A stretch of DNA of 54,789 bases from Oscillatoriales cyanobacterium PMM_0019 (GCA_949127975.1 CASBRB010000089.1:1-54789), one strand, 5' to 3'. Positions 7,455 through 42,481 are shown, counted from the first letter of the stretch. Made by a program: numbers and translations. Notes: generated by a model not told the origin, from the letters alone.

Positions 7455-7528
7455 GGGTATTACTCTCAAAAGCGTTGAACTGCATCAGAGATGGCATCAG
7501 GAAAATCAATCATTGGCAACCGAGCAGG
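7455..7528 (+). repeat. Left copy of a 74-bp diverged direct repeat (3' fragment of the alphaCTD-like gene)
   Basis: By hand alignment it matches 12267-12340 at about 66 of 74 positions. In the cognate frame it reads GITLKSVELHQRWHQENQSLATEQ, versus GITLDSVELRQRWHQENQSLATEE in the intact gene. Confidence 0.85.
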
Positions 7529-12969: not shown

Positions 12970-13554
12970 TCAAGTTGCCCTCCTATCTTTCCCAAAAACT
13001 TCAGAAGCTTTTAAATTAAGTTCCCTAAATCCGGGAGATGGCAGTAAATCATCATTGCTAAAACTACCAACTTCTGTATAAGTATCGCCTGTAAGTTCTA
13101 GGATGAGAATGGTTTGAGTTTGGGGATCGACAATCCAATATTCGGGAATCCGACAATCTTGATATTGCGTTCTTTTGGCGATGTAGTCTCTATCTTTTTG
13201 TATATTTCCGGGACTAACTATTTCAATAACTAATAGAGGGGGTAACATTGAAAGGCGAATAGTGTTGCGCTTTGATAGTTGTTGAATATGTTCTTCTCGG
13301 ATGATGGTTAGATCGGGATAGCGGTTTTTGGGTTCGCCTCTGACTTCTAATTCTAGTCCTTGCGCCCTAACTCGATCGGTTCCTATAATTAAGGCAAAAA
13401 ATAAAAAAATTCGATTGGCAATTTGGATATTTAATCCTGATTCTGGAGGCATTTCGATCAATTCTCCGTTAAATAGTTCATAAAATTTTTCGGAATAGTC
13501 GTCGTATAGTAGATACTCTTCAAAAGTTTCAAATCGAGGTTTAACGGTTAACAT
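12970..13554 (-). CDS. Uma2 family (DUF820) endonuclease
   Basis: YELFNGELIEMPPES...PDLTII...PPLLVIEIVSPGN...RIPEYWIVDP is the typical Uma2 PD-(D/E)xK layout. I start it at the internal ATG (MLTVKPRF) so that it does not overlap the upstream gene. Confidence 0.85.
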   Translation of the reverse strand: MLTVKPRFETFEEYLLYDDYSEKFYELFNGELIEMPPESGLNIQIANRIFLFFALIIGTDRVRAQGLELEVRGEPKNRYPDLTIIREEHIQQLSKRNTIRLSMLPPLLVIEIVSPGNIQKDRDYIAKRTQYQDCRIPEYWIVDPQTQTILILELTGDTYTEVGSFSNDDLLPSPGFRELNLKASEVFGKDRRAT

Positions 13555-13585
13555 CAGATTTACTCCATGCAATGGGTTAGCTGTG

Positions 13586-17290: not shown

Positions 17291-17370
17291 TAAGTTCTTC
17301 GATTGGAGATGCGTTTTTGCTAGTCATGGTAGATATTTATGAGGTAGAAAAGTAGACAAAATTAAGTTTA

Positions 17371-17461
17371 CAGGATTTACGCACTGCCTCTACATATAGC
17401 GGTTTGTAGGGGCAATCCCCCTGTGGTTGCCCCTACATATGCCCAGTCTGCGTAAGTCCTG
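17371..17461 (+). repeat. SDR copy
   Basis: caggatttacgcactgcctctacatatagcggtttgtaggggcaatccccctgtggttgcccctacatatgcccagtctgcgtaagtcctg. Confidence 0.85.
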
Positions 17462-17462
17462 T

Positions 17463-18131
17463 TTAGGATAAACCCTGGGCATAGTAGCGCAAGCCACTTA
17501 GTTCTGTTTCGATTGAGTCTTCAGCTTTATCAGGGGTGATATCTGGCATCTCTCCTCCCATAAACTGAAAAATATCGTTTGCCTGCATCTCCAGCATCCA
17601 CTTATCAAACTGGGCGCGAGTGACGCGGGAACCTATTTCCCGCCGAATCCGATATATCGGCACTAGGTTATCTAGGTTGTAGTCGCGGTTAAGTTGGTTG
17701 TAGACATCTACTGCCACTTGCTTAAACTCTTCGTAGGATGAAATCTTACTTGCCTCATGCGCCGCCACCCCATTACCTAGCGTTCCCATCTGCCTCATCC
17801 ACTTCAACAACGCATTGGCTGTTTTAGCTCCTATTTGGCTGTCAAACTCAAATTCAGGGCTATTCAGTGTCTCGCCCAGCATCTGGACACCTGTGGCAGA
17901 GAGAGTTATTTTATTTTTAGAGAGTGCGATCGCTCCTACTTTCTCCAATTGTTCAAATATGCCCTGATAATCTCCAGCTTTCTCGTGCTTCCGTTTAACT
18001 CGTTTAGTTAATTCACCTTTCTTAACTTCTGACTCAGTTCCTCCTATATCCCACATGGCAAGCAGCACGCGAGTTTTGGTTTGGGCTTCATTAGCCCCTG
18101 GCTGTTTATCTGTTGCTGGCATCTTAATCAC
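17463..18131 (-). CDS. Uncharacterised 222-aa protein, probably two winged-helix-like halves, co-transcribed with NTPase paralog A
   Basis: It starts 6 nt after the stop of the 617-aa gene. I recognise no family. The pattern GELTKRVKRK...IFEQLEKVGAIAL and LVPIYRIRREIG...FDKWMLEMQ suggests wHTH-type modules. Confidence 0.6.
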   Translation of the reverse strand: MIKMPATDKQPGANEAQTKTRVLLAMWDIGGTESEVKKGELTKRVKRKHEKAGDYQGIFEQLEKVGAIALSKNKITLSATGVQMLGETLNSPEFEFDSQIGAKTANALLKWMRQMGTLGNGVAAHEASKISSYEEFKQVAVDVYNQLNRDYNLDNLVPIYRIRREIGSRVTRAQFDKWMLEMQANDIFQFMGGEMPDITPDKAEDSIETELSGLRYYAQGLS

Positions 18132-18137
18132 ACCTAA

Positions 18138-19991
18138 CTAACTAACTAAATCATCAGGAATCTTTCCAGACGGTTCACTGAGAATTTCCCGGATCACATC
18201 ATTCTCAACCACCAGCTTATTTTGCTCAATAAAATCACTAATTTGCTCTTTGCTTAACTCGTAATCTTCCCTCGCCCTCGAAACAAACAACATAGCTAAA
18301 AGCGGCTTTATGGCATCGGCTTTCAGTGGTACCCATTTACCGCCCAACTCAGGAGACAAAAGTTTCCTCAAACAGTTTTGGGCTTCAGTAGCATTAGCAC
18401 TAATTTCTTTAGAGCGCACTAAGCAACTACGAGTAATATCAAACTTCTTATACTCAATAATTCGCTTTAATCCAGCTAGCACACTATTGCCATTATCTTG
18501 CTGAATAATAGCCACCCCAATCTTGACTGTTTCCCCGTTTTGGTTACCGATGATTTTGAAATCAAAGTAACCTTTGTTTAAACTTTGAGGTTCTACTTTT
18601 TCCAGCTTCTCAATTTTTACCGTTTCTATGGTGTGTCCAATAGCATTAGAGAAGCCTAGCAACAGGGCAGCAGCAATTTTAGGCTTATCCTCTAATAAAG
18701 TTTCTATAGATTCTTCCACAGCTACCAGCTCTTTATTGAAAGCAGCTTCAACAGGATGAGTGGTTGCTGTTTGAGGTGCAAAATGATGGGCACACCAACT
18801 TAAAACTTGTCTTACAGTTGGCTTTTGTTTAGCCAGTTCTCTCAGCTTGCTTTCGGTAAAGGGATAGACAGGATCGTTACTCAGTAAGTTTCTTGATTCA
18901 TAAAACTCTTTCAGCCAGAGGGTGACTAACTTAACAATAGAGTCACCATCCATATATTTCAACTCAATCGGCTCTGGTGTTGCGGATGAAACCCGATATG
19001 GTATCCCACCAGGCAGCGACTTAATTTTAAGTTCCCATGTGTCTGGTAGCATTGCTGTTAAAATAACAACCCCTCTACTGCTACTTTCTAAATCAAGCCT
19101 GTCAAATATATTTTTAACTAAGACAGCCACAACCTGTGCTTTCGTAAACCCAGAATCACTGAGATTAACTCCCTCTAGTTCGTCCAAACATATCAGCAGC
19201 GTTTTATAGTCACTAATCAAACTCAAGATTTGCAGGATAAAATCAAAAGCTTTAGCTTCTCGATATTCTGGTACGTGATTTGGTAGCCCAAGTTCGGCTG
19301 CCTTTGATTCAGATAAATCGTTGCCCGATAACCACTTAATTGCGTAAGGCGCGTGAGATAAAGAAAGTGTCCAAAAAATAGCTCTGATAATATCGGGATC
19401 TGTCTTGGGTTTTATATTGACAGCTACTGCCGTCAGGCTGTCAATATAATTAGGATTTTTTTCTAGAGCAGATGGAAAGTTCTTCTCTACTAAATCATGG
19501 GGGTGCTTACTTATTTTTTCGGCTTGGCTAATTTTATCGACATGTTTGTAATTTCCTATTAAGATATCGATCGCTAGTTCTTGCCACTGTTTTAATCCTT
19601 TGCTACCAACCTGGTTAAGGCCCTGGGACAAAGTTTGTAAAAATTGGTAGTTAATCAGTTTTAAATCAGTAAAGTTACTGGCGCTGGCATAAACAAATAA
19701 AGCATCGCTCTCATTTAGCAGCCTATGGCGAATCCGACTAATCGTGTGAGTTTTGCCAACTCCTTGTTCTGCTGTTATAACTAAAGATGTAACTTTGCCT
19801 TGACCAGAGCTAACCTGTTTAATCGCTTGCAGAACGGCGTCAGAAGCATGAGCATTGAGACTGGGAACATCAGGGAATCCTTGAACCCAAACATCTTGAA
19901 CCCGAACGGCAGCACCTCTATCAACAAAGGGGTTGTAACTTTGGATAGCAACGTTAAGCTCCGAGATGGTGGTAGTCATAGTACTGGTCAT
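18138..19991 (-). CDS. P-loop NTPase, paralog A (AAA/STAND-like, uncharacterised)
   Basis: Walker A AEQGVGKTH and Walker B LLICLDELEG. The N-terminal NPFVDRG motif and the C-terminal ~150 aa (VENDVIREILSEPSGKIP) are shared with paralog B. Confidence 0.8.
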   Translation of the reverse strand: MTSTMTTTISELNVAIQSYNPFVDRGAAVRVQDVWVQGFPDVPSLNAHASDAVLQAIKQVSSGQGKVTSLVITAEQGVGKTHTISRIRHRLLNESDALFVYASASNFTDLKLINYQFLQTLSQGLNQVGSKGLKQWQELAIDILIGNYKHVDKISQAEKISKHPHDLVEKNFPSALEKNPNYIDSLTAVAVNIKPKTDPDIIRAIFWTLSLSHAPYAIKWLSGNDLSESKAAELGLPNHVPEYREAKAFDFILQILSLISDYKTLLICLDELEGVNLSDSGFTKAQVVAVLVKNIFDRLDLESSSRGVVILTAMLPDTWELKIKSLPGGIPYRVSSATPEPIELKYMDGDSIVKLVTLWLKEFYESRNLLSNDPVYPFTESKLRELAKQKPTVRQVLSWCAHHFAPQTATTHPVEAAFNKELVAVEESIETLLEDKPKIAAALLLGFSNAIGHTIETVKIEKLEKVEPQSLNKGYFDFKIIGNQNGETVKIGVAIIQQDNGNSVLAGLKRIIEYKKFDITRSCLVRSKEISANATEAQNCLRKLLSPELGGKWVPLKADAIKPLLAMLFVSRAREDYELSKEQISDFIEQNKLVVENDVIREILSEPSGKIPDDLVS

Positions 19992-31566: not shown

Positions 31567-33282
31567 ATGGAATTAAGGCAAGAAATATTTGATACTTATT
31601 GGAAATTTGCCGCTCGTCGCCAAGAGGTATTTTTTAACAGAATTAAAAACTTACCCCCGCCCTGGACAAGTGACCCGATTCTCAACGAGTATAAATTCTG
31701 CAATGCTTATCGAGCGAGCGATCGCGTTTCCCAATACCTAATAAAACATATCATCTACGACGCTAGACGCAGCCAGAATGAAGAAGAAGTTATTTTCAGA
31801 ATCTTACTATTTAAGATTTTTAACAAAATAGAGACTTGGGCATACTTAGAAAGTCGGCTAGGAGCGCCGATCGAACTGTCTAATTTTGATTTGGAGCTTT
31901 ATTCCAGCTTTTTGCAAGAGGCAATGGACAATGAGCAGGTAATTTATACCAGCGCCTATATGATGACTGGGGTAACAAAAGAATTTGGCTATAACAAGAA
32001 ACACCAGAATCATCTAGCTTTGATTAGCAAAATGGTATTAAAAGACCGGATATTAAATAAACTAAGCGCAGCCAAGAGTCTACAAGAAGTTTTTGTAATT
32101 CTGGTATCTTATCCCTTAATAGGCAATTTTCTAGCATATCAGTTAGCCACTGATATCAACTACAGTGAAGTAATAGACTTTGATGAAAATAGTTTTACTA
32201 TGGCGGGGCCTGGTGCGGAACGCGGTATCGGTAAATGTTTCCTAGATACAGGCGCTAAAAGTAACGCCGAAATTATATATTGGATGACGGAAAACCAAGA
32301 GCAAGAGTTTCAGCGTTTAGGGATAAATTTTCAATCCCTGTGGGGGCATCCACTTAAAGCTATAGACTGTCAAAATCTATTTTGTGAAGTAGATAAATAC
32401 TGCCGCGTGGCGGTGCCAGAATTAAAAAGTAATCGCAAGAGATTAAGATCGAGATTTAGTGCCACTACTCAACCAATTGAATATTTTTATCCGCCCAAAT
32501 GGAATATAAACGATAAAGTTAGGGAAACTTTAGCTGAACGATTGTCAACACAGGTACTCCCTCAACAGCAACCTATAGAGATACAAAGTAAAAAGAAAAT
32601 AGGGCATGAAACCATTCAGGAGTTGGAGTTGTTTGCTCAACTAACTGACTTTTCTTTTGCTCCACAAGTGGAAAGAAAAAATAAGGTTAAGAAAACTTCA
32701 ACGCCAAGATTGCCAATTGTGGATAAAACTCTTGAGGAGCCAGAAATAGAAATGAAAAAAGATGCCAAGACAGACTCAAATAAACTTTACCGCTATTGGC
32801 TCTTGCGGGAATGGAACCCTAATGCTCCACGAGTGGTTTTTGTGATGCTCAACCCAAGTGTCGCCGATGCCGATATAGACGATCCCACATTACGCAAATG
32901 TATTGGTTTTGCCAAGTCTTGGGGTTACGGTTCCCTAGAGTTGGTTAATTTGTTTGCCTACATTGCCACCGAACCTGATAACCTGCGTCAAGTAGAAGAT
33001 CCTGTAGGTTCAGATAATGACTCCTATCTTTTAAAGACGATAGAAAATGCCGAGAAAGTTATTCTCGCATGGGGCGATGAGGGCAGTAAGCGCCCCTGGC
33101 GCTATCGAAATCGATCCAAACATGTGCTAAAATTGATTGGTGAGAAATCATCTCTCTACTGCTTGGGGCTGACAGAGCATGGGCACCCACGCCACCCTCT
33201 GTATGTTGACTATAAAACAACCCCAGTTTCTTTTGAATTACCGCCCCTACAGCTAGAATTAAATTTTGGGATATTAGGTTAA
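31567..33282 (+). CDS. Fusion of a putative DNA base hypermodification protein (aGPT-pyrophosphorylase-like) N-domain with a C-terminal DUF1643 domain
   Basis: The N-domain IFDTYWKFAARRQEVFFNRIKNLPPPWTSDPILNEYKFCNAYRASDRVSQYLI is the family signature as I recall it. The C-domain is YRYWLLREW...VVFVMLNPSVADADIDDPTLRKCIGFAKSWGYGSLELVNLFAY...GHPRHPLY, the DUF1643 signature. I start it at the ATG at 31567, because the ORF-track start at 31390 overlaps the previous gene. Confidence 0.55.
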   Translation: MELRQEIFDTYWKFAARRQEVFFNRIKNLPPPWTSDPILNEYKFCNAYRASDRVSQYLIKHIIYDARRSQNEEEVIFRILLFKIFNKIETWAYLESRLGAPIELSNFDLELYSSFLQEAMDNEQVIYTSAYMMTGVTKEFGYNKKHQNHLALISKMVLKDRILNKLSAAKSLQEVFVILVSYPLIGNFLAYQLATDINYSEVIDFDENSFTMAGPGAERGIGKCFLDTGAKSNAEIIYWMTENQEQEFQRLGINFQSLWGHPLKAIDCQNLFCEVDKYCRVAVPELKSNRKRLRSRFSATTQPIEYFYPPKWNINDKVRETLAERLSTQVLPQQQPIEIQSKKKIGHETIQELELFAQLTDFSFAPQVERKNKVKKTSTPRLPIVDKTLEEPEIEMKKDAKTDSNKLYRYWLLREWNPNAPRVVFVMLNPSVADADIDDPTLRKCIGFAKSWGYGSLELVNLFAYIATEPDNLRQVEDPVGSDNDSYLLKTIENAEKVILAWGDEGSKRPWRYRNRSKHVLKLIGEKSSLYCLGLTEHGHPRHPLYVDYKTTPVSFELPPLQLELNFGILG

Positions 33283-33319
33283 TATAGCGATCGTAGTTCT
33301 TTTAGTACTTGCTGAAGTT

Positions 33320-34300
33320 ATGCAGCCGCGAGAGGAAATTTTTGACACATACTGGAAATTTGCCGCACAACGGCAAGAAATATTTTTTAACAGAATTAAA
33401 AATGAGCCTCAGCCTTGGAGTATCGATCCGATTATCGATAAATATAAGTTTTGTAACGCTTATCGAGCGAGCGATCGCGTTTCCCAGTATCTCATAAAAA
33501 ACGTCATTTATCAAGGTAGCCAGAATAAAGAGGAAGTTCTTTTTAGGATATTGCTATTTAAGATATTTAACAAAATAGAAACCTGGCAATATTTAGAAAG
33601 CAAGCTGGGAACAGTAGAACTAAAAAGCTTCAATTTTGATGAATACTCCGCTTTATTGGCATCTGCGACTGATTCTGGGCTGGCTATATACACCAGTGCA
33701 TATACCTCATGTCCCACTAGAGCCTTTGGCTATCCAAGAAAGCACCAGAATCATCTAGCGTTGATCCGCAAAATGGTACAATCAGATGAGCTAATTCAAA
33801 AGATAGATAACGCTACCAGTCTGAGAAAAGTTTTTCTAGCTCTGCTTGATTATCCCCTAATAGGCAAATTTATGGCTTATCAGCTAGCCACAGATATCAA
33901 CTATAGTGAGATTATCGAGTGTGAAGAAAATGATTTTACTGCGGCGGGACCTGGTGCTGAACGTGGCATTAGCAAATGTTTCACTAATACCAAAGGTAAA
34001 AGTGATGAGTATGTTATCAAGTGGATGGTAGATAAACAACAAGAAGAGTTTCACCGTTTAGGAATAAATTTTCAATCTCTTTGGGGACGTCCCTTAAAAG
34101 CTATAGACTGTCAAAATTTATTTTGTGAAGTAGATAAATACTGCCGCGTAGCGTTTCCCGGCTTGAAAAGTAATCGCACTAGAATCAAAGCGAGGTTTAA
34201 GGCAAATCTGCAACCGATCGAATATTTCTATCCTCCGAAATGGGGGATAAATGATAAAGTTAAAGAAACTTTAGCTCAAAATACTTACTCCCAAAATTAG
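33320..34300 (+). CDS. Putative DNA base hypermodification protein (aGPT-pyrophosphorylase-like), stand-alone paralog
   Basis: 326 aa, about 65% identical to residues 1-320 of the preceding gene. Stretches are near-identical at the DNA level, for example ttttgtgaagtagataaatactgccgcgt. Confidence 0.55.
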   Translation: MQPREEIFDTYWKFAAQRQEIFFNRIKNEPQPWSIDPIIDKYKFCNAYRASDRVSQYLIKNVIYQGSQNKEEVLFRILLFKIFNKIETWQYLESKLGTVELKSFNFDEYSALLASATDSGLAIYTSAYTSCPTRAFGYPRKHQNHLALIRKMVQSDELIQKIDNATSLRKVFLALLDYPLIGKFMAYQLATDINYSEIIECEENDFTAAGPGAERGISKCFTNTKGKSDEYVIKWMVDKQQEEFHRLGINFQSLWGRPLKAIDCQNLFCEVDKYCRVAFPGLKSNRTRIKARFKANLQPIEYFYPPKWGINDKVKETLAQNTYSQN

Positions 34301-34509
34301 GGTGGAGATCGCGTTAAAGATACGTACCAAGGGAATGGGAATCTTATACCTTTGAAAAGGATTGAAGATGCAAACTCTTTTCCACTCTACCATCCGACTT
34401 ATCACAAAACCAGCAGAATACCCACCTCATTTATTAATAATAAGCTTGGTTCAAAAATGTTGATAAATTTACACTCGTAGTAGTTGACGTAAATAATCAC
34501 TTTTTTCCA

Positions 34510-34887
34510 TTAACCTAATGTCAGTACTCCTGCTGGTAAATCAACTACTAAACGATTTGTTTTTAGCCATTGGACACCTATAATAATTTCATGAATTTCC
34601 TCTCCTCCTAAAGCATAAATATTTACTTCTTGACCATCAAAGATTACTTTTCCTGCATATACATTGAAGTCAGTTGTGCCATTTGCTGTTATCATCGCGA
34701 AGGTATTCTCAGTAAATGACCAATCTAAGCTTTCTGCATCTTGCTTATCTATTGCTAACCATCCAGTAAATCCAGTATCTAAGAGTGCATTAACACAGAT
34801 AATATCTCCATCAGCACCAATTAAGCCAATCTCAAAATAAAGCTGTGCTTTATCATCAACCTCTCCTACTATCATATTCTTCCACAA
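34510..34887 (-). CDS. Retropepsin-like (clan AA) aspartic protease
   Basis: ALLDTGFTGWLAI carries the DTG active-site motif, and the size (~120 aa) fits. An alternative start at 34875 overlaps the upstream stop in an ATGA arrangement. Confidence 0.7.
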   Translation of the reverse strand: MWKNMIVGEVDDKAQLYFEIGLIGADGDIICVNALLDTGFTGWLAIDKQDAESLDWSFTENTFAMITANGTTDFNVYAGKVIFDGQEVNIYALGGEEIHEIIIGVQWLKTNRLVVDLPAGVLTLG

Positions 34888-35192
34888 GCTCCAGTTTCAT
34901 TAAGTCGTAAGATGAGCCTTCGTCTATCTGGATATTTTTCTTTAGCCTTTACGATCGCTATTTCTTGATTTTTATCGATGAAATATTCACCACTTACTGG
35001 CTCAATCGCAATAAACCAGTTATAATGTTCTTCAATTAGCTCTGGCTTAATTAGATCGAATATTACTCGACATCGCTTACTGAAATTTTCATCTTCTAAT
35101 CTCCGTCTTTCTTTTTCTTCAGGACTTATCTGACGTTCTGGAAATAGTCTACCTCGACGACGTGGCGTTTGATTATCCGATAAACGTGTCAT
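34872..35192 (-). CDS. Small protein, DUF5678-like partner of the aspartic protease
   Basis: HYNWFIAIEPVSGEYFIDKNQEIAIVKAKEKYPDRR resembles the DUF5678 pattern as I remember it. I chose the ATG at 35192, which has GAGGGAG upstream. Confidence 0.45.
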   Translation of the reverse strand: MTRLSDNQTPRRRGRLFPERQISPEEKERRRLEDENFSKRCRVIFDLIKPELIEEHYNWFIAIEPVSGEYFIDKNQEIAIVKAKEKYPDRRRLILRLNETGACGRI

Positions 35193-35251
35193 CCAATTGC
35201 TCCCTCTCAAAAATTTGCGACAGTTAAATTAATTATAGCACATAGAGTTCT

Positions 35252-35827
35252 TCAAGATAAATTAACCCCTGCTAGTTTCAAAATATATGCTGGCTGACAT
35301 TCCGCAGCAGAATTAAGTACAGTTATCTCGGTGTAGCGTTCAAACCATTCTTTCATTATAGCTTGCATTGACAAACACTGTTCCAGGGTTTCATATCTGC
35401 CCTCCGGTTGGTAACGAGTGCGATATTCAGCTTCGGTGAGTTGGATAAAAAAGTTGTATATTTTGATATTGTGGGTTTTGGCTAAGTAGTCTTCCCATTC
35501 TGCGATCGCTGCTATCATGTGGGGAAATGCATTGTTAGAATAGTAGTTAGCGTAAAATCCACATAAAAGAGGAGAGGTGTCTGATATAGCTAACTCGTAT
35601 CTATTGGTAAGTAAAGCTGTGATATAGTGGCTTTGATTTCCCAAAACTGCCAATTGATGGATAGCTGATATCGGAATTTTTCGCATTGCCCAGTCTTTGA
35701 TAAACTCAGTAATGAGATGAGATCTGATACCCAGGCGAGAAGTGAGAGCATAAATCTCTGCCGCCAGAGTAGATTTGCCCACACCGGGAACACCAACAAT
35801 ATTAATCAGTTTAAGCCTGAAGGTCAT
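35252..35827 (-). CDS. Small P-loop kinase/NTPase (AAA_28/NadR-like or nucleotide-kinase-like)
   Basis: The Walker A INIVGVPGVGKSTLAAE sits at the extreme N-terminus and the protein is 191 aa. It diverges from the TS-like gene across a 111-bp spacer. Confidence 0.6.
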   Translation of the reverse strand: MTFRLKLINIVGVPGVGKSTLAAEIYALTSRLGIRSHLITEFIKDWAMRKIPISAIHQLAVLGNQSHYITALLTNRYELAISDTSPLLCGFYANYYSNNAFPHMIAAIAEWEDYLAKTHNIKIYNFFIQLTEAEYRTRYQPEGRYETLEQCLSMQAIMKEWFERYTEITVLNSAAECQPAYILKLAGVNLS

Positions 35828-35938
35828 ATAATAAGTTAATAGGGGGAGTTGTCAGAAACAATGAATATTAGTATAATCCAAAATAACGACTTTTTGGCAG
35901 ATGGAAAATGTTCAATATCGAATCCTTAGATTTTTACC

Positions 35939-37465
35939 ATGACTGAAACCTTGTTTAGACCTATCCCAAGAAGAAACCTGCAATATGTTTATGCGCCCAA
36001 GTGTAAACCAAATCAATTAATTTGCGGGCAAGGACAAACAGCGCTCGTTACTGGCTGGACTTTAAAAGAGGCAGTATCTAAACACCTCCAGCCAGAAGAA
36101 TTTGCAGCGATCGGGCATCTCTATAGCCCAACCAGAGGAATTAGTTTTTTAATTAGGAATTTAATCGCTAACCCTCACGTTCGCTTTCTAGTGGCTTTAA
36201 TCGCTACTAAAGAAGATCGCAATGCTGGTGGGTGTAAATGTTTATTGGATTTTTTTCGCTATGGATTCAAAGAGGGAACAACGGATTCTGGGCGAAAATG
36301 CTGGATAATCCTGTCGGAAGTCCCAGGCTATATAGACTTGGAAATTCCAATAGACGTATTAGAAACCTTGAGGACTCATATCCTATGTGAAGAAACTACA
36401 TCAGTTGCTGAGGCAGTAAAGATAACAAAACTTTTTGCTCGAGGAGAAGCAATGCCACCTTGGGGGGAACCGCTTGAATTTGCCATCCCTGAAATAACTC
36501 CAACAATCTTACCAGGAACTAGATATGGGCATAGAATAGAAGGTAAAACGATCGCGGAGACTTGGGTAAAAATCATTCATCGCATTAAAACGACTGGCAC
36601 AATTAGACCGACTACCTATGATGGGCGGTGGCAAGAGCTAATTGACCTTATGGCGGTAGTCACGGATGAACCAGATGGTTTCTTTTTCCCACAACCTAAT
36701 TATTTGCCGATCGAGCGCTCATTCATCGAGCAGTATCTCGATCAGATCTTGGTAGATACTCCCTATAAAGAAGGGGTCAAGTATACTTACGCCCAGCGTT
36801 TGCGATCGTGGTTTGGGTGCGATCAAATAGAACAGGTTATTAAAAAATTGACTGGTGACATTGATTCAGCTAGTGCAGTTATGTCACTCTGGGATGCCAA
36901 AGACCATGATTGGGATGGGGGCAGCCCCTGTCTGAACCATATTTGGATCAGAATAGTCGATGGCGAAATGTCATTAACCGCCACTTTTCGCAGTAACGAT
37001 ATGTTCTCGGCTTGGCCAGCTAACGCAATGGGGCTCCGAGCTTTGCAGCAGCACATCCGGGACGAGATCTCTAATCGTTCCAATCGCGCCCTGCGGTTAG
37101 GACCGATGATTACCATAAGCCAGTCGGCGCATATTTATGATGATACATGGGAAAGTGCCGATCGGATTATCGAGCAGCAGTATTTTAAAAATTGCAAAAG
37201 TAAAGACTATAACGATCCTTGTGGAAATTTTTTAATTGAGGTTGACGGGGAAAATATTGTAGTTAAACAGACTACCTCTGGTAGCGGCGAGGTTGTAGCG
37301 TCTTATGCTGGGAAAGATCCACTGAAATTACTTAAGAAAATTTGTGATACTTCTCCAGCATTACAGGCGGAACACGCTGGCTACTTAGGCATTGAGCTAC
37401 AGACGGCTGTAGCTTGCATACAAAATGGGGGTACATATATCCAAGATAGAGGTTGTTGTTTTTAA
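35939..37465 (+). CDS. Thymidylate synthase-family protein with an MtrA-like N-domain and a DUF4346-like C-domain
   Basis: TS core: YAQRLRSW...DQIEQVIKKL...AVMSLWDAKDH...SPCLNHIWIRIVDGEMSLTATFRSNDMFSAWPANAMGL. The Cys nucleophile and the RSND motif are present. N-terminus: GISFLIRNLIANPHVRFLV. C-terminus: DPCGNFLIEVD...HAGYLGIELQTA...YIQD. Confidence 0.7.
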   Translation: MTETLFRPIPRRNLQYVYAPKCKPNQLICGQGQTALVTGWTLKEAVSKHLQPEEFAAIGHLYSPTRGISFLIRNLIANPHVRFLVALIATKEDRNAGGCKCLLDFFRYGFKEGTTDSGRKCWIILSEVPGYIDLEIPIDVLETLRTHILCEETTSVAEAVKITKLFARGEAMPPWGEPLEFAIPEITPTILPGTRYGHRIEGKTIAETWVKIIHRIKTTGTIRPTTYDGRWQELIDLMAVVTDEPDGFFFPQPNYLPIERSFIEQYLDQILVDTPYKEGVKYTYAQRLRSWFGCDQIEQVIKKLTGDIDSASAVMSLWDAKDHDWDGGSPCLNHIWIRIVDGEMSLTATFRSNDMFSAWPANAMGLRALQQHIRDEISNRSNRALRLGPMITISQSAHIYDDTWESADRIIEQQYFKNCKSKDYNDPCGNFLIEVDGENIVVKQTTSGSGEVVASYAGKDPLKLLKKICDTSPALQAEHAGYLGIELQTAVACIQNGGTYIQDRGCCF

Positions 37466-37532
37466 TAGTATTTGCTATTCTGAAACATACCGTTAACAGG
37501 GGAGTTGTCAGAAACACCTAATGTTAGTATAA

Positions 37533-37621
37533 CAGGACTTACGCACTGCCTCCATATATAGGGTTCGTAGGGCAATCCCCCTGCGGTTGCCTCTATATGT
37601 GCCCAGCGTGCGTAAGTCCTG
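37533..37621 (+). repeat. SDR copy between the two TS-like genes
   Basis: caggacttacgcactgcctccatatatagggttcgtagggcaatccccctgcggttgcctctatatgtgcccagcgtgcgtaagtcctg. Confidence 0.85.
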
Positions 37622-37632
37622 TATAATATAAA

Positions 37633-39339
37633 ATGACTAGCTTTAGGCAGGGTAAAATGTTTAAAAATGTTACTTATGCGTTTAGAGAAGGGCTAAGAAA
37701 AATCTTGCAAGAAGGAGAGGTAATTGCAGTGCGATCGCATGAAACCAAGGAAGTGCGATCACATCTAATTAAAATTTCCTCTCCCCTAGAGCGGGTTTAT
37801 CTTATTCCTCACCGAAATAACAACATTTTCGCTCAAATTGCCGAAACGCTGTGGATGATTGCCGGACGCAGTGACATGGCTTTTTTATCACATTACCTGC
37901 CCCGTGCCGTTGATTTTTCCGATGATGGCAAAGTGTGGAGAGGTGCTTATGGTAGTAGGCTGAGAAACTGGCAAGGTATAGATCAAATTGAAGAAGTAGC
38001 GCGGCTTCTCCGTCAAGATCCTAACAGCCGTCGTGCTGTAATGGTGATTTTCGATCCGGCACAAGATTATCTAGACAGTAAAGACATCCCTTGCAACAAT
38101 TGGCTACATTTTCTGATTCGCGATGGGCGCTTGCACCTGAATGTATCTATTCGCTCTAACGATATCTGGTGGGGATTTTCAGGGATTAATACTTTTGAAT
38201 GGAGCGTGCTGCATGAGATGATGGCTTATTGGACGCGATCTAAAGTAGGAGAGTATAGTCACTTTGCTAGTTCTTTCCACTTATACGAACGCCATTACCA
38301 GCCTGCTGAAAAAATAATTGCTACCTCTCAGGATAAAACCTTATATGACTTCGGATTTACTAACCCGCCATTTAGCATCCCATTTGAAGAGTTTGACGAA
38401 GCAATGGTGCGATGGTTTGCCATAGAAGATAAAATGCGTCAGGGTGAGACAAACCTGAGGCAGGAAATCAATAATTTTGATGATAGCTTTCTCAGAAACA
38501 GCCTAGAGATGTTGTATATCTATAATCGCTATCTGCTGGGAGCTGAGGGGGAAGAGATTGCCCAGCTTATAGAAGAGTTGCCGCCTAATGATTTTAAGAT
38601 TGGGGCGATCGAGTATTTTTCTCGTAAGTTAAAAAATAGAGAGTTGGTAAAACTCCAGGATAAAGAGAGAGAATATTTCCAGTATTTCTGGGGAGCGGAT
38701 GTAGCTGATAATTTATCTGTTACAGTACCCGGTAAATCCGTCGTCACCTTTTCATTTATTTTTGCTAAATTAAGCATACTCCACTATAAGAAAAGCCTCG
38801 TCTATAAAGACAGTTGGAAGAAGCACGGCGAGTTGCTGGGAGTTTTTGGCAATATTGCACGAAAGTACGATCGGATAGAAGTAATCATGAAGGATAAAGT
38901 TAAGCCAACTTCTGATGAATCTCTACTGGATACTGTAGCAGATATGGCTGTTTATTTAACTAAGTATATGACCTATCTAGCAGAACATTACCAAACTATC
39001 TTTAAGGAGTTTATCGGGCAATATCCTTCAGTGGAGCCAATTGAACATTACTGGGATAATCAAGGATTTGAGTCTGTAGTGAAAATCCTGATTAGGAGAT
39101 ATGACAATTCTGGGGAGTGGGAGCAGATTTCTAACTACGGCGATTGCTTTGCTGCCCTGAGCAAGAATTATAAAGTACTTGAAGATATCCTGATTAATGG
39201 TGACTGGCGCAGCAGCGATCCGCGAAAATGTTCATTTGCCGCTGATTTAGCTATTAGTGCAATGCATTTTCTGGTGCTGGCGTCACAAAAAGAACCGGAG
39301 AAGTTCCAGAAACTCTTAAGGTATATAGAAATGCTTTAG
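37633..39339 (+). CDS. Thymidylate synthase-family protein fused to a C-terminal all-alpha MazG/DUF1599-like domain
   Basis: TS core: ETLWMIAGRSD...YGSRLRNWQGIDQIEEVARLLRQDPNSRRAVMVIFDPAQD...IPCNNWLHFLIRDGRLHLNVSIRSNDIWWGFSGINTFEW. C-terminus: YKDSWKKHGELLGVFGNIARKYDRIEVI...ESLLDTVADMAVYLTKY. Confidence 0.7.
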   Translation: MTSFRQGKMFKNVTYAFREGLRKILQEGEVIAVRSHETKEVRSHLIKISSPLERVYLIPHRNNNIFAQIAETLWMIAGRSDMAFLSHYLPRAVDFSDDGKVWRGAYGSRLRNWQGIDQIEEVARLLRQDPNSRRAVMVIFDPAQDYLDSKDIPCNNWLHFLIRDGRLHLNVSIRSNDIWWGFSGINTFEWSVLHEMMAYWTRSKVGEYSHFASSFHLYERHYQPAEKIIATSQDKTLYDFGFTNPPFSIPFEEFDEAMVRWFAIEDKMRQGETNLRQEINNFDDSFLRNSLEMLYIYNRYLLGAEGEEIAQLIEELPPNDFKIGAIEYFSRKLKNRELVKLQDKEREYFQYFWGADVADNLSVTVPGKSVVTFSFIFAKLSILHYKKSLVYKDSWKKHGELLGVFGNIARKYDRIEVIMKDKVKPTSDESLLDTVADMAVYLTKYMTYLAEHYQTIFKEFIGQYPSVEPIEHYWDNQGFESVVKILIRRYDNSGEWEQISNYGDCFAALSKNYKVLEDILINGDWRSSDPRKCSFAADLAISAMHFLVLASQKEPEKFQKLLRYIEML

Positions 39340-39348
39340 ATTACTCAG

Positions 39349-39420
39349 GTAGAGACAGCGGTTGGTAGGGGCAATCCCCCCGTGGTTGCCCCTATATATG
39401 CCCAGTCTGCTACAGTACTG
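39349..39420 (+). repeat. SDR variant copy
   Basis: gtagagacagcggttggtaggggcaatccccccgtggttgcccctatatatgcccagtctgctacagtactg. Confidence 0.7.
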
Positions 39421-39437
39421 AAGGACTAAAGTTGTAG

Positions 39438-39470
39438 TTGTAGGTTGGGTTGAGGAACGAAACCCAACAT
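39438..39470 (+). repeat. 33-bp GTAGGTTGGGTTGAGGAACGAAACCCAACAT element, nested
   Basis: It is flanked on both sides by a duplicated ctgctacagtactgaaggactaaagt (about 39407-39432 and 39518-39543). Confidence 0.8.
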
Positions 39471-39531
39471 CTTCAGTACTTTAGCACCTTGACAGGGCTA
39501 CCTTATATATGCGCAGTCTGCTACAGTACTG

Positions 39532-39747
39532 AAGGACTAAAGTCCTCACTACGAACCTGTAAGGACTTTAGTCCTCACTACGAACCTGTAAGGACTTTAG
39601 TCCTCACTACGAGCCTGTAAGGACTTTAGTCCTCACTACGAACCTGTAAGGACTAAAGTCCTCACTACGAACCTGTAAGGACTTTAGTCCTCACTACGAG
39701 CCTGTAAGGACTAAAGTCCTCACTACGAGCCTGTAAGGACTAAAGTT
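39532..39747. repeat. Tandem array of 7.4 copies of a 29-bp unit (AAGGACTWWAGTCCTCACTACGARCCTGT)
   Basis: Units start at 39532, 39561, 39590, 39619, 39648, 39677, 39706 and 39735. There are no spacers. The last partial unit overlaps the desB stop codon (39740-39742). Confidence 0.9.
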
Positions 39748-40810
39748 CTTTTTTCGATTTGTAGTAAACTTTTCCTCCTGCATCCGGAACAAAATGGCAA
39801 CTGATGTAAGCATTCCAAAAGCCTTGCCAAATTGGCTGGCTAGATATTCGGTAGTAGTCTCCCAAAATGGGTTTTATTGCCTCATTAGCCGCTAACAAAT
39901 GATAGTGAGGAATGCTCAGGAAGATGTGGTGAACTACATGAGTACCAATATTGTGGTGAATGCGATTCAGCAACCCATAATCTTGGTCTATAGTAGAAAG
40001 GGCACCCTTTAGAAAATACCAATCTTTGCCTCGATACCAGGGAATCTCAGGGGTTGTGTGATGCAGAAATGTTACTAAATCGAGCAATACCACAAAAACT
40101 ACATAGGGGCCGAGATAATACTTCAGGAGAAATATCCAGCCATATTCATAGGTGAGCCAGCTTAATAACCCAACCATCAAAATGCAGCACGTTGTGCTGG
40201 TGATGATATCCCATTTCTCTGAAGGCTTAAAAAGTGGACTCTCTGGCATAAAGTGAGAGCCTTTCTTACCGGGCGAACGTTTAAACAAATACAAGGGATA
40301 GGCAATCAGCAAAAGATGGAACCGAAACAGCTTTTCATACCAGGGCATACTCCGATACTTGCTTTCTGTAACGGGATACCAACTTTCATCAGTGTCGATA
40401 TTTGCGGTGTTTTGGTGATGAGTTCTGTGGCTGATGCGCCAGCCATGAAAGGGAACAAGTATGGGAGTATGAGCTAGATGACCAATCAAATTATTCAGCC
40501 ATTTCTGGCGGGAAAAGGAACCGTGCCCGCAATCATGCCCCACGACAAACAGTGCCCAAAACATGGTACCCTGCATCAGCCAAAATATTGGCCATAACCA
40601 CCAGTAATCTAGGAAGTAAGCCCCTCCATAGAGGATACCGATTACAGTTATATCCAGGAAAAAGTAAAAAAGTGATTTCCTATTTTGTGGGTTAAAGCAA
40701 TAGGAAGGAATGGCGGATTTTAATTGAGCAAGAGTGAAGGGAAGTTCTGCCCCAACATCAGAAACTTCTTCTTGTGGAGGAGCAGTTAAATTGTCACACG
40801 TAGATTGCAT
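39740..40810 (-). CDS. desB: Acyl-lipid omega-3 (delta-15-type) fatty acid desaturase
   Basis: The three His boxes are HDCGHGSF, HRTHHQN and HVVHH. LPFTLAQLKSAIPSYCF and HDCGHGSFS resemble the omega-3 (DesB/FAD7) class rather than the DesA class. Confidence 0.7.
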   Translation of the reverse strand: MQSTCDNLTAPPQEEVSDVGAELPFTLAQLKSAIPSYCFNPQNRKSLFYFFLDITVIGILYGGAYFLDYWWLWPIFWLMQGTMFWALFVVGHDCGHGSFSRQKWLNNLIGHLAHTPILVPFHGWRISHRTHHQNTANIDTDESWYPVTESKYRSMPWYEKLFRFHLLLIAYPLYLFKRSPGKKGSHFMPESPLFKPSEKWDIITSTTCCILMVGLLSWLTYEYGWIFLLKYYLGPYVVFVVLLDLVTFLHHTTPEIPWYRGKDWYFLKGALSTIDQDYGLLNRIHHNIGTHVVHHIFLSIPHYHLLAANEAIKPILGDYYRISSQPIWQGFWNAYISCHFVPDAGGKVYYKSKKEL

Positions 40811-40877
40811 TCGGTTCGCGATTTAAACTGACAGCATAGATTATACGCCAATCATAGTCGCTAAATCTAGAGACAGG

Positions 40878-41936
40878 CTAAATTTTTGGCAAAATAACTT
40901 TTTCCGCTTGATCTTGATACTTGCCCTTTCGTTGCTCGTAAGTAGTCTGACAAGATTCTCCTTCTAAGAAAAGCAATTGACAAACTCCCTCCGAAGCGTA
41001 TATTCTAGCATCAGCAGGAGAAGAATTAGAAAATTCTAGCGTTAAGTGTCCCCGCCATCCCGCTTCGGCAGGAGTTATGTTAGCAATAATGCCGCAATTG
41101 TGGACAAAAACTCCGGCAGCGATCGCAAAATTTCCCGCTTCAGGAACCGTTAAGCAATAAACATCATGAATGCCAGGAATATCCTGGACTGACGCAACTT
41201 TATGGTTTTTGACCCCTGTTAGCGGCTGATATACTGTTTCATAACCCCGTGTATTTTCCCGATATAGCGGCATCAAAGAATCATTTGGTCTTAAATCATC
41301 CGCAGGTACCATGCTACCATGCCTTTTCATAAAAAGATGGTCTGGGGTACAAAAAATCGATTCCTCATTATCCAAAGTCACTTTCACCAAGGAATCTCGA
41401 CCAATATAACGAGGGTTTGACAAAAGTGTTATAATTACCAGTCCATTTTTATCTATGCTGTATCCCCAAAAATTCTCCCCTTGCTGGGCCCGCTGGGCCA
41501 TCTCCTCTAAGGTGGGAGAACTGCCATCAACTAAGGCTACACGAGTATCCCCTCGAAAGCAGCGAGCATAAGTAGATTTACCCAGACAAATTACAGTAAT
41601 ATTCTCCGGTATATTTAGATGCTCTAGCGCCACCCCAAGCCCGTAGGATCTTCCCGGCAAGATAAAAAATTCTCCATCGCGATCGCGCTGAAGTTCTCCA
41701 ACCTCCAAATTTTCTGGATTAAACCGCTTGGGATTAACAATTGTACCTGGGATATGTCTAAAAATCCTAAATTCTTTTGGTGAAAGTCTGATATCGTACC
41801 CGTAACTCGAGCATCCAAATGACAACACGGGTATGATATTTGCCTCAAATTCCATACTCCTAACAAGTTTCGGATCGAATGGCTGAATCATTCCTGATTC
41901 AGCCATCTTAGCAATCCAAATATCATTTTTTATCAT
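40878..41936 (-). CDS. dcd: dCTP deaminase interrupted by a mini-intein
   Basis: The exteins are MIKNDIWI...SYGYDIRL...GKSTYAR | CGIIANITPAEAGWRGHLTLEFSNSS. These align with E. coli Dcd GRSSLARLGLMVH...DPGWSGCIVLEFYN. The intein lies between them. Confidence 0.9.
   Translation of the reverse strand: MIKNDIWIAKMAESGMIQPFDPKLVRSMEFEANIIPVLSFGCSSYGYDIRLSPKEFRIFRHIPGTIVNPKRFNPENLEVGELQRDRDGEFFILPGRSYGLGVALEHLNIPENITVICLGKSTYARCFRGDTRVALVDGSSPTLEEMAQRAQQGENFWGYSIDKNGLVIITLLSNPRYIGRDSLVKVTLDNEESIFCTPDHLFMKRHGSMVPADDLRPNDSLMPLYRENTRGYETVYQPLTGVKNHKVASVQDIPGIHDVYCLTVPEAGNFAIAAGVFVHNCGIIANITPAEAGWRGHLTLEFSNSSPADARIYASEGVCQLLFLEGESCQTTYEQRKGKYQDQAEKVILPKI
41097..41561 (-). other. Mini-intein (155 aa, no homing-endonuclease domain) in dcd
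   Basis: Begins CFRGDTRVALVDG (block A, Cys1). Block B is IFCTPDHLF (TxxH). Ends GVFVHN, followed by the +1 Cys (CGII). Confidence 0.85.
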
Positions 41937-41944
41937 GTTCTATT

Positions 41945-42481
41945 CTAAGTACGGTGACTCCGACGAATCTGGGTAATTTGATCCGCTACTTCCAAAATTG
42001 CTGGCGGCATTTCTGGCCCTGTCAAAATAATATCTACATGATGGGGGCGTTCTTCTAGAAAAGCTAGCACTTCCTTTTCTGGAATCAAACCAAAATTAAT
42101 CGCTAAACTGAGTTCATCCAAAACCACTAGGGAATATCTACCCTCAAAAACCACCTTTTGAGTATGTTGCCACAACTGTAGCAAAGATTCAGCCTCAGCT
42201 TGGTCGAGATGGGGAGTATCAATACAGCGGGGCAAGTCGCAGCGTATCCAATCTAAGTGCTGCCCTAGTTTAACGGGATGCTCGCGCCCTTGGTTGATTC
42301 CTCCTTTAAGGAACTGTACCACTAGGACTGGTGTCCCCTGTGCTGCAATTCTCAGCGCTTGCGCCATCACGCTAGTAAAAAAGCTGCGGCAAGAGGAGGT
42401 GAAAACCTGTACTAGCCCTTCAACCTTGTAGGGTAGGGGTGAAGAAGAATTGACAGTGGGGGTTTCTAGCTGGGCAATCAT
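41945..42481 (-). CDS. CobA/CobO/BtuR-family protein with a degenerate P-loop
   Basis: VVQFLKGG...YSLVVLDELSLAINFGLI...VDIILTGPEMPP matches the corrinoid adenosyltransferase family. The GxGKGKTT position reads SSCRSFFT. It ends 8 nt before the dcd start. Confidence 0.7.
   Translation of the reverse strand: MIAQLETPTVNSSSPLPYKVEGLVQVFTSSCRSFFTSVMAQALRIAAQGTPVLVVQFLKGGINQGREHPVKLGQHLDWIRCDLPRCIDTPHLDQAEAESLLQLWQHTQKVVFEGRYSLVVLDELSLAINFGLIPEKEVLAFLEERPHHVDIILTGPEMPPAILEVADQITQIRRSHRT

Follow-up and report, generated by a model that had tools for sequence, protein, structure and literature searches.

Why would a cyanobacterial chromosome carry, side by side, proteins of the kind that phages use to build hypermodified thymidines? 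The question is raised by a locus at positions 31567-41936 of a 54,789-nucleotide (nt) stretch of DNA from Oscillatoriales cyanobacterium PMM_0019 (GCA_949127975.1, CASBRB010000089.1:1-54789; hereafter the window). A sequence-only reading had noticed here two tandem paralogs, one of them fused to DUF1643, a 191-amino-acid (aa) P-loop kinase, two proteins of the thymidylate synthase (TS) fold and a dCTP deaminase gene, dcd, and had proposed that they form a cellular hypermodification pathway. A list of open reading frames (ORFs), combined with Pfam, NCBIfam and PHROG profile scans, finds every one of these parts where it had been placed. The locus is composite: dcd and one TS gene (TS1) belong, with a cobO-like gene, to a resident neighborhood, and the remaining genes (A, B, K and TS2) form an accessory module set beside it. 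We read this module, with about as much belief as doubt, as a cyanobacterial variant of a conflict system of the DS-4 type, built on the synthesis of 5-hydroxymethyl-deoxyuridine (5-hmdU) nucleotides and on DNA-acting enzymes of the HMUDK_hel family that carry a Cys-Glu dyad.

Kinship with DS-4

DS-4 (working id NTTI) combines a TS, a deoxynucleoside monophosphate (dNMP) kinase, HMUDK_hel, TIR and Nmad2; it was validated as an anti-phage system in E. coli (DeWeirdt, Mahoney and Laub, Science 2026; PMC13092281) and is among the validated, replicated systems of the DefensePredictor study (PMC13092281). The expectation that no cellular system of this type had been characterized has thus been overtaken. 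TS2 (37633-39339, plus strand, 568 aa) belongs to the same subfamily as the DS-4 TS (33% identity, E 2e-35); B (33320-34300, plus strand, 326 aa) encodes a stand-alone HMUDK_hel protein, as does DS-4, and matches the E. coli protein WP_087900470.1 (26% identity, E 1e-29); K (35252-35827, minus strand, 191 aa), a small P-loop protein that appears to be of nucleotide-kinase type, as the DS-4 kinase is, sits in the equivalent position; and the two systems share a patchy spread among cellular genomes. They also differ. DS-4 has a ThsB-type TIR and Nmad2, neither of which is found in the window (tblastn, E<0.01), whereas the window adds a second HMUDK_hel, encoded by gene A (31567-33282, plus strand, 571 aa; PF18723 + PF07799), its fusion to DUF1643, a long-form TS with an Nmad1-like C-terminal domain, and a kinase from an unrelated family.

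Is this grouping more than chance? An alignment of the TS2 family was used to scan a collection of genome contigs (genome_contigs) with one genome for each of ~185,000 species, and just 94 stretches were confirmed to encode a family member. Neighbors were counted within 10 kb of the TS gene in the best 80 of the 94 stretches, each a distinct locus; Cyanobacteria, Actinomycetota, Proteobacteria, Firmicutes, Chloroflexota and Acidobacteriota (six phyla) are represented. The distribution is sparse and patchy, yet the company is consistent across phyla: HMUDK_hel lies near the TS2-family gene in 60/80 loci, a ThsB-type TIR in 39/80 and Nmad2 in 29/80; the C-terminal domain of TS2 is present in 42/80; and genes for TylF-like methyltransferases, thymidylate-kinase-like proteins, SLOG and Nuc_deoxyrib_tr recur. 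Since TS2 and HMUDK_hel co-occur so often, and the gene order of the window is repeated in a second assembly (GCA_038226575.1; L007), the grouping is not a chance one.

Some members of the family keep other company. Short-form TS2-family genes (~360 aa) that lack an HMUDK_hel neighbor are preceded by a Nuc_deoxyrib_tr (DNPH1-like) gene (L015-L017, L047, L048, L060-L064 and others). The Nuc_deoxyrib_tr cluster comprises 15 loci, although some of its members, such as that in L011, are dCMP-deaminase matches instead; in P0186 the TS2-family and Nuc_deoxyrib_tr proteins are fused. We take these pairs to resemble pairs of a hydroxymethylase and an N-glycosidase such as MilA/MilB.

A hydroxymethylase-like thymidylate synthase and its kinase

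What might TS2 make? The suggested parallel with phage dUMP hydroxymethylases agrees with its closest relatives. TS2 matches PF00303 (E 6e-26) and phrog_5131 (E 6e-79) and retains DIPCNNW, with the catalytic Cys, RSND and N186 (equivalent to ThyA Asn177). Its first 340 residues are 40% identical to gp41 of Brevibacterium phage LuckyBarnes, 41% to Montesquieu MONT_51 and 39% to PaMx11 gp51, and it is 32-34% identical to SPO1 gp29 and to the SP10 enzyme annotated as a dUMP hydroxymethylase; the alignment with SPO1 gp29 (32%, E 1e-46) covers residues 12-331 and includes the extension past the TS core. By contrast, identity to E. coli ThyA is ~25%. TS2 scores 106 bits, and all ThyA models of NCBIfam fall far below the equivalog cutoff for both TS1 and TS2. 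Judged by these comparisons, the nearest kin of TS2 are the dUMP hydroxymethylases of phages and not ThyA; whether its product carries a hydroxymethyl or a methyl group is not readable from the sequence.

TS2 also extends past its TS domain. The TS domain and a ~100-aa middle region (residues 1-340, nt 37633-38652, plus strand) are followed by a helical domain of ~225 aa (nt 38653-39336, plus strand) that is weakly Nmad1/DUF1599-like. This C-terminal domain has no significant family match, and in 3/5 divergent TS2 homologs it yields sub-threshold DUF1599/Nmad1 matches (E 0.04-0.2). MazG_C was considered as its identity and rejected: it shows no similarity to the MazG::MazG_C protein of Dolichospermum. 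LuckyBarnes gp41 and Montesquieu MONT_51 share the architecture of a TS followed by this C-domain, and their genes have as neighbors an HMUDK_hel gene that stands alone and the gene for DNA polymerase I. The translation start of TS2 is likely to be at 37657 (MFKN...), as indicated by homologs and the public gene call, a point that the sequence-only reading did not mention.

If TS2 makes a modified monophosphate, which enzyme would carry it further? K has a Walker A motif; its profile matches are weak, one to AAA_28 at E 2e-5, which misses the Pfam cutoff, and one to phrog_2107 ('thymidylate kinase') at E 1e-7, and its phage tblastn matches are annotated as thymidylate kinase or AAA. The role that a 5-hmdU DNA kinase (5-HMUDK) fills in the phage parts list is one that we reject for K: K does not match Ploopntkinase1 or Ploopntkinase2 even at E<=10 (Ploopntkinase3, E 0.14), and its similarity to gp49, the 5-HMUDK of PaMx11, is confined to the Walker A motif. 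BLASTP finds no similarity between K and the DS-4 kinase. In 19 related loci of other phyla, the equivalent position is taken by a gene of the Thymidylate_kin family, and altogether the kinase slot is held by three unrelated families: AAA_28, the adenylate-kinase-like dNMP kinase of DS-4, and Thymidylate_kin. That three unrelated families of nucleoside monophosphate (NMP) kinase type occupy one slot argues that the substrate is a nucleotide and not DNA, and suggests that K acts on a modified dNMP. K is transcribed divergently from TS1 in the window; in L005/L012, its ortholog is divergent from the TS2 ortholog.

A pairing of this kind has a phage counterpart. SPO1 and SP8, which have 5-hydroxymethyluracil (5-hmU) in their DNA, use the dUMP hydroxymethylase gp29 together with a phage dNMP kinase. 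TS2 is homologous to gp29, and its pairing with an NMP-type kinase corresponds to the pre-replicative route to a modified dNTP. Unlike these phages, the window encodes no dTTPase/dUTPase and nothing else that would keep dTTP out of DNA (tblastn with cyanobacterial dut is negative), and SPO1 has no counterpart of the HMUDK_hel and DUF1643 proteins.

HMUDK_hel: helical module or enzyme?

A and B are tandem paralogs (67% identity over 329 aa, E 4e-168), and both bear a signature of the type PW(T/S)xDPIxxxYKFCNAYRASDRVSQYLI. From this signature, the sequence-only reading had placed them in the alpha-glutamyl/putrescinyl-thymine pyrophosphorylase (aGPT-Pplase) or 'putative DNA base hypermodification protein' family, and the placement holds: they match PF18723 (HMUDK_hel) at E ~1e-110, A with E 8e-110 over profile positions 2-280 of 281 (residues 6-287, nt 31582-32427) and B with E 3e-108; PF18723 carries the JGI label aGPT-Pplase clade 1; and homologs are publicly named 'putative DNA base hypermodification protein', 'nucleotide kinase domain-containing protein' or 'alpha-glutamyl/putrescinyl thymine pyrophosphorylase clade 1'. 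Among PHROGs, A matches phrog_2396 and phrog_3230. Phages hold relatives too: the 'hypothetical' PaMx11 gp50 (L091 19787-20674), encoded between the gp49 kinase and the TS-like gp51, is an HMUDK_hel homolog (25% identity to B, E 1e-20), and HMUDK_hel is also present in Nodularia cyanophages. The annotation of PaMx11 gp49 as a 'terminase small subunit' may account for the matches of A and B to phrog_800, which bears that name too.

Do these proteins complete a DNA modification, as had been supposed? The enzymes proven to attach groups to 5-phosphomethyl-deoxyuridine (5-PmdU) DNA, M6 gp51, ViI gp247 and PaMx11 gp46, all belong to clade 2 (PMC8989533), whereas A and B belong to clade 1. The 2018 paper (Lee et al., PNAS) lists SP10 gp186, a kinase fusion, and the stand-alone ViI gp160 as 'aG/PT-PPlase1' (PMC5889632); the 2021 paper (Lee et al., NAR) poses as open whether either ViI aGPT-Pplase is essential and then shows gp247 to be necessary (PMC8989533); neither gives a role for clade 1 (PMC5889632, PMC8989533).

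The HMUDK_hel sequences themselves offer a hint. In an alignment of ten family members (from cyanobacteria, E. coli, one actinobacterium and four phages), C269 and E270 of the motif CExDKxxR (CEvDKyCR in A) are invariant, as are N46, R49, D52, D192 and a GPGxxRG loop. Clade-2 aGPT-Pplases need an essential Cys and a neighboring Glu (PMC8989533), and the nucleophile of gp46 is Cys247; the Cys-Glu dyad of HMUDK_hel parallels these residues. Because C269, E270 and the other residues are invariant in ten such proteins, HMUDK_hel looks like an enzyme family rather than merely a helical DNA-binding module. The AlphaFold2 (AF2) model of B is all-helical (pLDDT 75.9), and its top match in a fold search of the Protein Data Bank (PDB) is the 5-PmdU glycinyltransferase PaMx11 gp46, a weak one (E 0.15, TM 0.40-0.44); the other matches, to MutY and OGG, both helix-hairpin-helix (HhH) glycosylases, and to DUF2419, are likewise non-significant (E >= 0.15, TM <= 0.45). 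An hhalign comparison of the HMUDK_hel profile with gp46 is not significant, and sequence and profile searches of the PDB with HMUDK_hel, DUF1643 and the TS2 C-domain return nothing meaningful.

Parts shared with phage hypermodification pathways

How much of a phage pathway does the window hold? With the thymidine hypermodification clusters of M6, ViI, PaMx11, SP10 and PhiW-14 (PMC5889632, PMC8989533), it shares a hydroxymethylase-type TS, a small P-loop kinase and HMUDK_hel; in PaMx11, gp49-gp50-gp51 (kinase, HMUDK_hel and TS) lie in a row. Paralogous pairs of aGPT-Pplases are common in hypermodifying phages (PMC5889632, PMC8989533). Unlike the phage pathways, the window has no clade-2 amino-acid:DNA transferase and no pyridoxal phosphate (PLP), radical S-adenosylmethionine (radical-SAM), flavin adenine dinucleotide (FAD) or acetyltransferase enzymes; K lies outside the 5-HMUDK families; and the locus is chromosomal, not viral. 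No ORF of the cluster matches an aGPT-Pplase family other than PF18723, and a tblastn search of the whole window with gp46 is negative. Nor is a tailoring enzyme (PLP decarboxylase, radical-SAM isomerase, FAD oxidoreductase or acetyltransferase) encoded among the cluster ORFs, and tblastn with gp47 is negative. In all, tblastn finds no TIR, Nmad2, clade-2 transferase, 5-HMUDK, FAD enzyme, MazG_C or dut in the window; a marginal Nmad2-like match at 13.5 kb (E 0.053) was discarded, as it falls inside a Uma2 gene. Since neither TIR nor Nmad2 is present, and a transferase of clade 2 and a kinase of 5-HMUDK type are lacking as well, the window does not encode a complete hypermodification pathway.

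These comparisons bear on the idea, the chief one of the sequence-only reading, that the cell modifies its own DNA: 5-hmdU would enter the chromosome, A and B would modify it after replication, and the modified thymidine would serve as an epigenetic or self mark. Each accessory part does have a counterpart in phage hypermodification clusters (PaMx11 gp49-gp51, LuckyBarnes, Montesquieu), the paralogous pair of aGPT-Pplases is typical of phages, and the invariant Cys-Glu dyad suggests real catalysis. Yet the clade-2 transferase, the kinase of a 5-HMUDK family and the tailoring enzymes are missing from the window, group transfer has been demonstrated for clade 2 only, and the window lacks a modification-dependent or modification-sensitive nuclease that would read the mark. 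Kin cellular loci, moreover, carry TIR, Nmad2 and SLOG, which typify abortive or signaling immunity, not restriction-modification. We consider self-marking distinctly unlikely.

DUF1643, a recurrent partner of HMUDK_hel

In gene A, HMUDK_hel is followed by a linker of ~120 aa and then by DUF1643 (PF07799, E 2e-48; residues 409-545, nt 32791-33201). The AF2 model of this domain has an alpha/beta fold (pLDDT 85.7) and finds no significant match in the PDB with Foldseek; in BFVD, the significant Foldseek matches are other DUF1643 proteins only, with weak and scattered ones to phage uracil-DNA glycosylases (UDGs; E 0.037 and 0.10) and large phage DNA polymerases (E 0.003-0.09). Its invariant motifs MLNPS, NLF and RHPLY resemble UDG motifs A and B, a matter of resemblance only: hhalign comparisons with MUG and Thermus UDG are not significant, and membership of DUF1643 in the UDG superfamily was set aside for lack of significant support from the PDB and BFVD fold searches and hhalign, leaving a lead at the level of motifs.

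DUF1643 partners HMUDK_hel in other cyanobacteria (L003, L005, L011), and at least ten cyanobacterial homologs of the two apparently occur together, which makes the pairing a common one. Alongside a TS2-family/HMUDK_hel pair, DUF1643 is found only in cyanobacteria (L011, L012). Elsewhere, it resides in staphylococcal cassette chromosome (SCC) elements, where its neighbors are the UDG inhibitor SAUGI and a restriction-modification system of type I; it also occurs as cargo of insertion sequences (IS) and in Stenotrophomonas phages.

The closest relatives of B (63-75% identical) are mostly from Nostocales, where they span many genera; cyanobacterial homologs of DUF1643 are similarly frequent. There, a three-gene module consists of HMUDK_hel (391 aa), DUF1643 and MazG::MazG_C (L003 10001-12724; Dolichospermum compactum, AP018316). 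Its HMUDK_hel is of the same subfamily as those of the window (67-70%), and DUF1643 is a separate partner there and fused here. A TS and a kinase, which the window has, are missing from the 10 kb around it, and MazG::MazG_C is present there and not in the window. Systems with aGPT-Pplase, MazG, MazG-C and UDG domains figure among the unvalidated predictions of the DefensePredictor study (PMC13092281); as far as a literature search showed, the Nostocales module is uncharacterized.

Resident and accessory genes

Do dcd and TS1 work with the module, as the sequence-only reading assumed? A metagenome scan anchored on the cobO-like gene (41945-42481; dcd lies downstream of it, 8 nt away) recovered 48 related cyanobacterial loci, each of at least 9 kb. 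A dcd gene directly follows the cobO-like gene in 31/48, all without the HMUDK_hel module; a dCMP deaminase takes the place of dcd in 8/48; and in 13/48, again without accessory genes, TS1 lies 1-3 kb further on, next to dcd, a dCMP deaminase or dut. This recurrence of dcd and of TS1 free of accessory genes identifies cobO-like/dcd/TS1 as a conserved neighborhood of housekeeping type, and on this comparison we reject the idea that the whole 10 kb, with dcd and TS1, is one functional cluster. Wide synteny, which had been named as a sign of an ordinary gene cluster, is thus found for dcd and the cobO-like gene and not for the HMUDK_hel/kinase/TS2 module.

TS1 (35939-37465, plus strand, 508 aa) is itself an unusual protein. 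It is only 32% identical to TS2 over 130 aa and consists of three domains on the plus strand: an MtrA-like one (residues ~49-147; NF002128, E 1e-10), an archaeal-type TS (200-417) and PterinBD-DUF4346 (426-503; PF14251, E 2e-19). It matches PF00303 (E 3e-12) and TIGR03283 (E 3.5e-38; 131 bits against a cutoff of 174.55), and it keeps P330, C331, R351, S352, D354, N362, H398 and Y400, all of them fully or almost fully conserved across 20 homologs. That both TS proteins of the locus retain the catalytic Cys and RSND and carry extra domains, as first noticed by eye, is thereby upheld by alignments and profile scans. Homologs with the three domains form at least 338 clusters at 50% identity (E<=1e-30), with conserved catalytic TS residues, and TS1-type genes are found on 124 contigs of uncultivated phages in IMG/VR, with up to 68% identity; two of these contigs (L092, L098) encode a terminase, a major head protein, a helicase and a replication initiator. 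None was found in cultured phage genomes. In 80 such phage-contig loci (L092-L171), TS1 has no HMUDK_hel, K, TS2 or DUF1643 neighbor: it stands alone in phages, and with dcd it falls out of the proposed pathway. TS1 is probably a true, if unusual, thymidylate synthase, a resident enzyme of dTMP synthesis rather than an accessory part. It represents a large uncharacterized family of three-domain TS-type enzymes, common to cyanobacteria and uncultivated phages, which may employ a pterin cofactor in an atypical manner.

The dcd gene (40878-41936, minus strand) is a housekeeping supplier of dUTP/dUMP. It scores 97.5 bits with TIGR02274 (cutoff 92.8), and the match falls into two stretches, between which lies a mini-intein of 156 aa (residues 126-281, nt 41094-41561, minus strand; Intein_splicing PF14890, E 7e-18), which had gone unmentioned in the sequence-only reading. 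The mini-intein reads CFRGDTRV...FVHN, followed by Cys; it is present in L007 and absent from 31/31 cobO-adjacent dcd relatives.

Why, then, does the module sit here? It lies beside the resident neighborhood in the window organism, in Oscillatoria princeps and in a metagenome-assembled genome of Aphanothece, three genera in all, and not in a fourth genome; in Oscillatoria it adjoins dut and a dCMP deaminase gene, and in Aphanothece a dCMP deaminase gene. This recurrent siting beside genes of dUMP supply could mark an insertion hot spot, or selection for nearness to the supply of dUMP. It is also what one would look to if the locus served ordinary pyrimidine metabolism and the sanitation of DNA and the nucleotide pool, with TS1 and perhaps TS2 as plain thymidylate synthases, HMUDK_hel and DUF1643 removing 5-hmU or uracil, lesions that arise by oxidation or deamination, from DNA, and MazG cleaning the dNTP pool in Nostocales. 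The frequency of the cobO-like/dcd and TS1 arrangement without other genes speaks for this view, as do the abundance of HMUDK_hel/DUF1643 in Nostocales, paired with MazG::MazG_C in the absence of a TS, and the intact catalytic residues of both TS proteins. It fits the TS2 family poorly: the family is rare and scattered, and across phyla it keeps company with HMUDK_hel, TIR and Nmad2, while TS2 is far closer to hydroxymethylases than to ThyA; synthesis of 5-hmdUMP and repair of 5-hmU at one locus make little sense; dTMP needs no dedicated NMP-type kinase; and GC content is below that of the flanks. Metabolism combined with sanitation is unlikely in our estimate.

The base composition of the accessory genes is consistent with a foreign origin. 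GC content is 0.38-0.41 in A, B and K (A 0.40, B 0.38) and 0.41 in TS2, against 0.42 in dcd, 0.44 in TS1 and 0.475-0.50 in the genes just outside the region (0.48-0.50 in the upstream flank); in L012, the genomic context of the module differs, which we count as a further sign of foreign origin. Between B and K, two small overlapping ORFs (34510-35210, minus strand) have a GC content of 0.35-0.375 and the lowest GC at third codon positions (GC3) of the region, 0.21-0.23. One, of 125 aa, is clan-AA aspartic-protease-like (TIGR03698, E 3e-11, below cutoff); the other, of 112 aa, has no Pfam match. The pair is absent at the equivalent position in L005, L011 and L013 and is probably a passenger insertion outside the system, possibly of toxin-antitoxin type.

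Could the module be dead cargo, a remnant of a phage nucleotide-modification cassette captured beside TS1? One relative has indeed come apart. In Aphanothece sp. CMT-3BRIN-NPC111 (L013 10004-15363), neither the catalytic Cys (the motif reads DISGNSW) nor the Arg of RSND survives in the TS2 ortholog, and no HMUDK_hel, DUF1643 or K remains; the dead TS2 is followed by an intact TS1, a 283-aa ORF that by eye is dCTP-deaminase-like with a hydrophobic tail, and a fusion of Nuc_deoxyrib_tr and dCMP deaminase. Here the locus seems to be decaying or to have been rewired. Together with the 68% identity between TS1 and uncultivated-phage proteins, the HMUDK_hel genes of Nodularia cyanophages, the low GC content and the inserted low-GC3 pair, it lends the idea some color. 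Against it, the five ORFs concerned are all intact in the window and keep their conserved catalytic motifs, the arrangement is preserved in L007, the ORF and profile annotation of the window shows no structural or integration genes of phages near the locus, and the module recurs in cells of many phyla. Non-working cargo strikes us as very improbable.

A possible mechanism and points against it

We return to the reading of A, B, K and TS2 as a DS-4-type conflict system. What favors it is the homology of TS2 and B to DS-4 proteins, the co-occurrence of the TS2 family with HMUDK_hel, TIR and Nmad2, and its patchy spread; the proximity of TS2 to hydroxymethylases, the NMP-type kinase slot and the invariant Cys-Glu dyad; and the low GC content and other signs of foreign origin, together with the pairing of DUF1643 with HMUDK_hel and its presence on mobile elements and phages. 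From this homology, family membership and co-occurrence, which are observed, we infer each chemical step and a defense role in this organism. Defense was among the options of the sequence-only reading and fits the kinship with DS-4; the mechanism below and the role itself are our own reconstruction.

In the proposed scheme, dcd and a cellular dUTPase would supply dUMP, which TS2, like SPO1 gp29, would convert with methylene-folate into 5-hydroxymethyl-dUMP. K would phosphorylate 5-hmdUMP, and cellular NDP kinase would then yield 5-hmdUTP; 5-hmdU would thus enter replicating DNA, chiefly the phage DNA of an infected cell. A and B, predicted to be helical, glycosylase-like and equipped with the Cys-Glu dyad, may flip 5-hmU from the helix and attack C6. 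Finally, DUF1643 of A may be the effector that replaces TIR and Nmad2 of DS-4, such that modified sites become lesions or blocks that halt phage replication. A bolder claim is that the cell itself makes 5-hmdUTP, through TS2 and K, and that Cys-dependent HMUDK_hel, with DUF1643 as a novel effector acting on DNA, chemically processes 5-hmU, either poisoning phage DNA or marking the cell's own genome; stated in full, it is tentative and rather doubtful.

Several observations weigh against a DS-4-type system. K appears, by sequence, to be analogous and not homologous to the DS-4 kinase. The validating study offers no mechanism for DS-4, and the single plaque-assay row drawn on here records a drop of ~0.9 log on lambda (PMC13092281). 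In the window, TIR, Nmad2, a nuclease or any other recognized effector is missing, and a PADLOC scan of all cluster proteins gives zero matches, with a 2023 library that predates DS-4. Some TS2 orthologs (P0125, P0142) lack the catalytic Cys. HMUDK_hel and DUF1643 homologs are very widespread, occurring in Nostocales without a TS (L003), and this wide spread fits a conserved cellular function equally well as defense; a metabolic role could also lie behind the position of the module next to genes of dUMP supply in three genera.

Repeats and neighboring genes

Repeated elements lie near the TS genes. A 34-nt promoter-like element upstream of TS1 (35843-35876, plus strand) holds the 5' part of TTGTCA-17-TATAAT (35849-35877), the best promoter-like site in a 9-kb scan (11/12 positions) and a putative promoter; the element recurs as a direct repeat, with 88% identity, upstream of TS2 (37499-37532). 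The K-TS2 intergenic region of L005 bears, by eye, no obvious likeness to it. A 52-nt element (37570-37621), part of a hairpin with 30-nt arms (37532-37622), recurs just past TS2 at 39369-39420. These repeats suggest recombination or a small mobile repeat around TS2.

Further downstream, between TS2 and a desaturase gene whose 3' end it overlaps, lies a tandem array (39503-39778) with a 29-nt period; its unit holds a 20-nt palindrome (GTAAGGACTTTAGTCCTCAC or GTAAGGACTAAAGTCCTCAC). The desaturase is 356 aa long in the window and 381 aa in L007. Other genes of the window (2635-3930, 7491-10833, 12970-13641 and 15494-19991), each over 10 kb away from the cluster, encode a DNA methylase of N6/N4 type, a cytosine C5 methylase with a 438-aa ORF that matches no family behind it, a putative endonuclease (Uma2) and a pair of paralogous ATPases (AAA_16); they may be other genes of defense type.

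Implications

Not until 2026 was protection of E. coli demonstrated for systems that combine a TS, a kinase and HMUDK_hel, in a study that offers no mechanism for DS-4 (PMC13092281); the core of the system had been predicted computationally years earlier, and one relative has since been validated. The cyanobacterial locus is a natural variant, without TIR and Nmad2 and with a DUF1643 fusion and a second HMUDK_hel; it helps define the minimal core of such systems and suggests an effector. The Cys-Glu dyad predicts that the clade-1 'helical domain' proteins are enzymes, which would clarify PaMx11 gp50 and ViI gp160. If the bolder claim above is true, HMUDK_hel would be a catalytic, DNA-base-modifying family and not a helical accessory domain, and phage thymidine hypermodification and cellular immunity would share one enzymatic toolkit.

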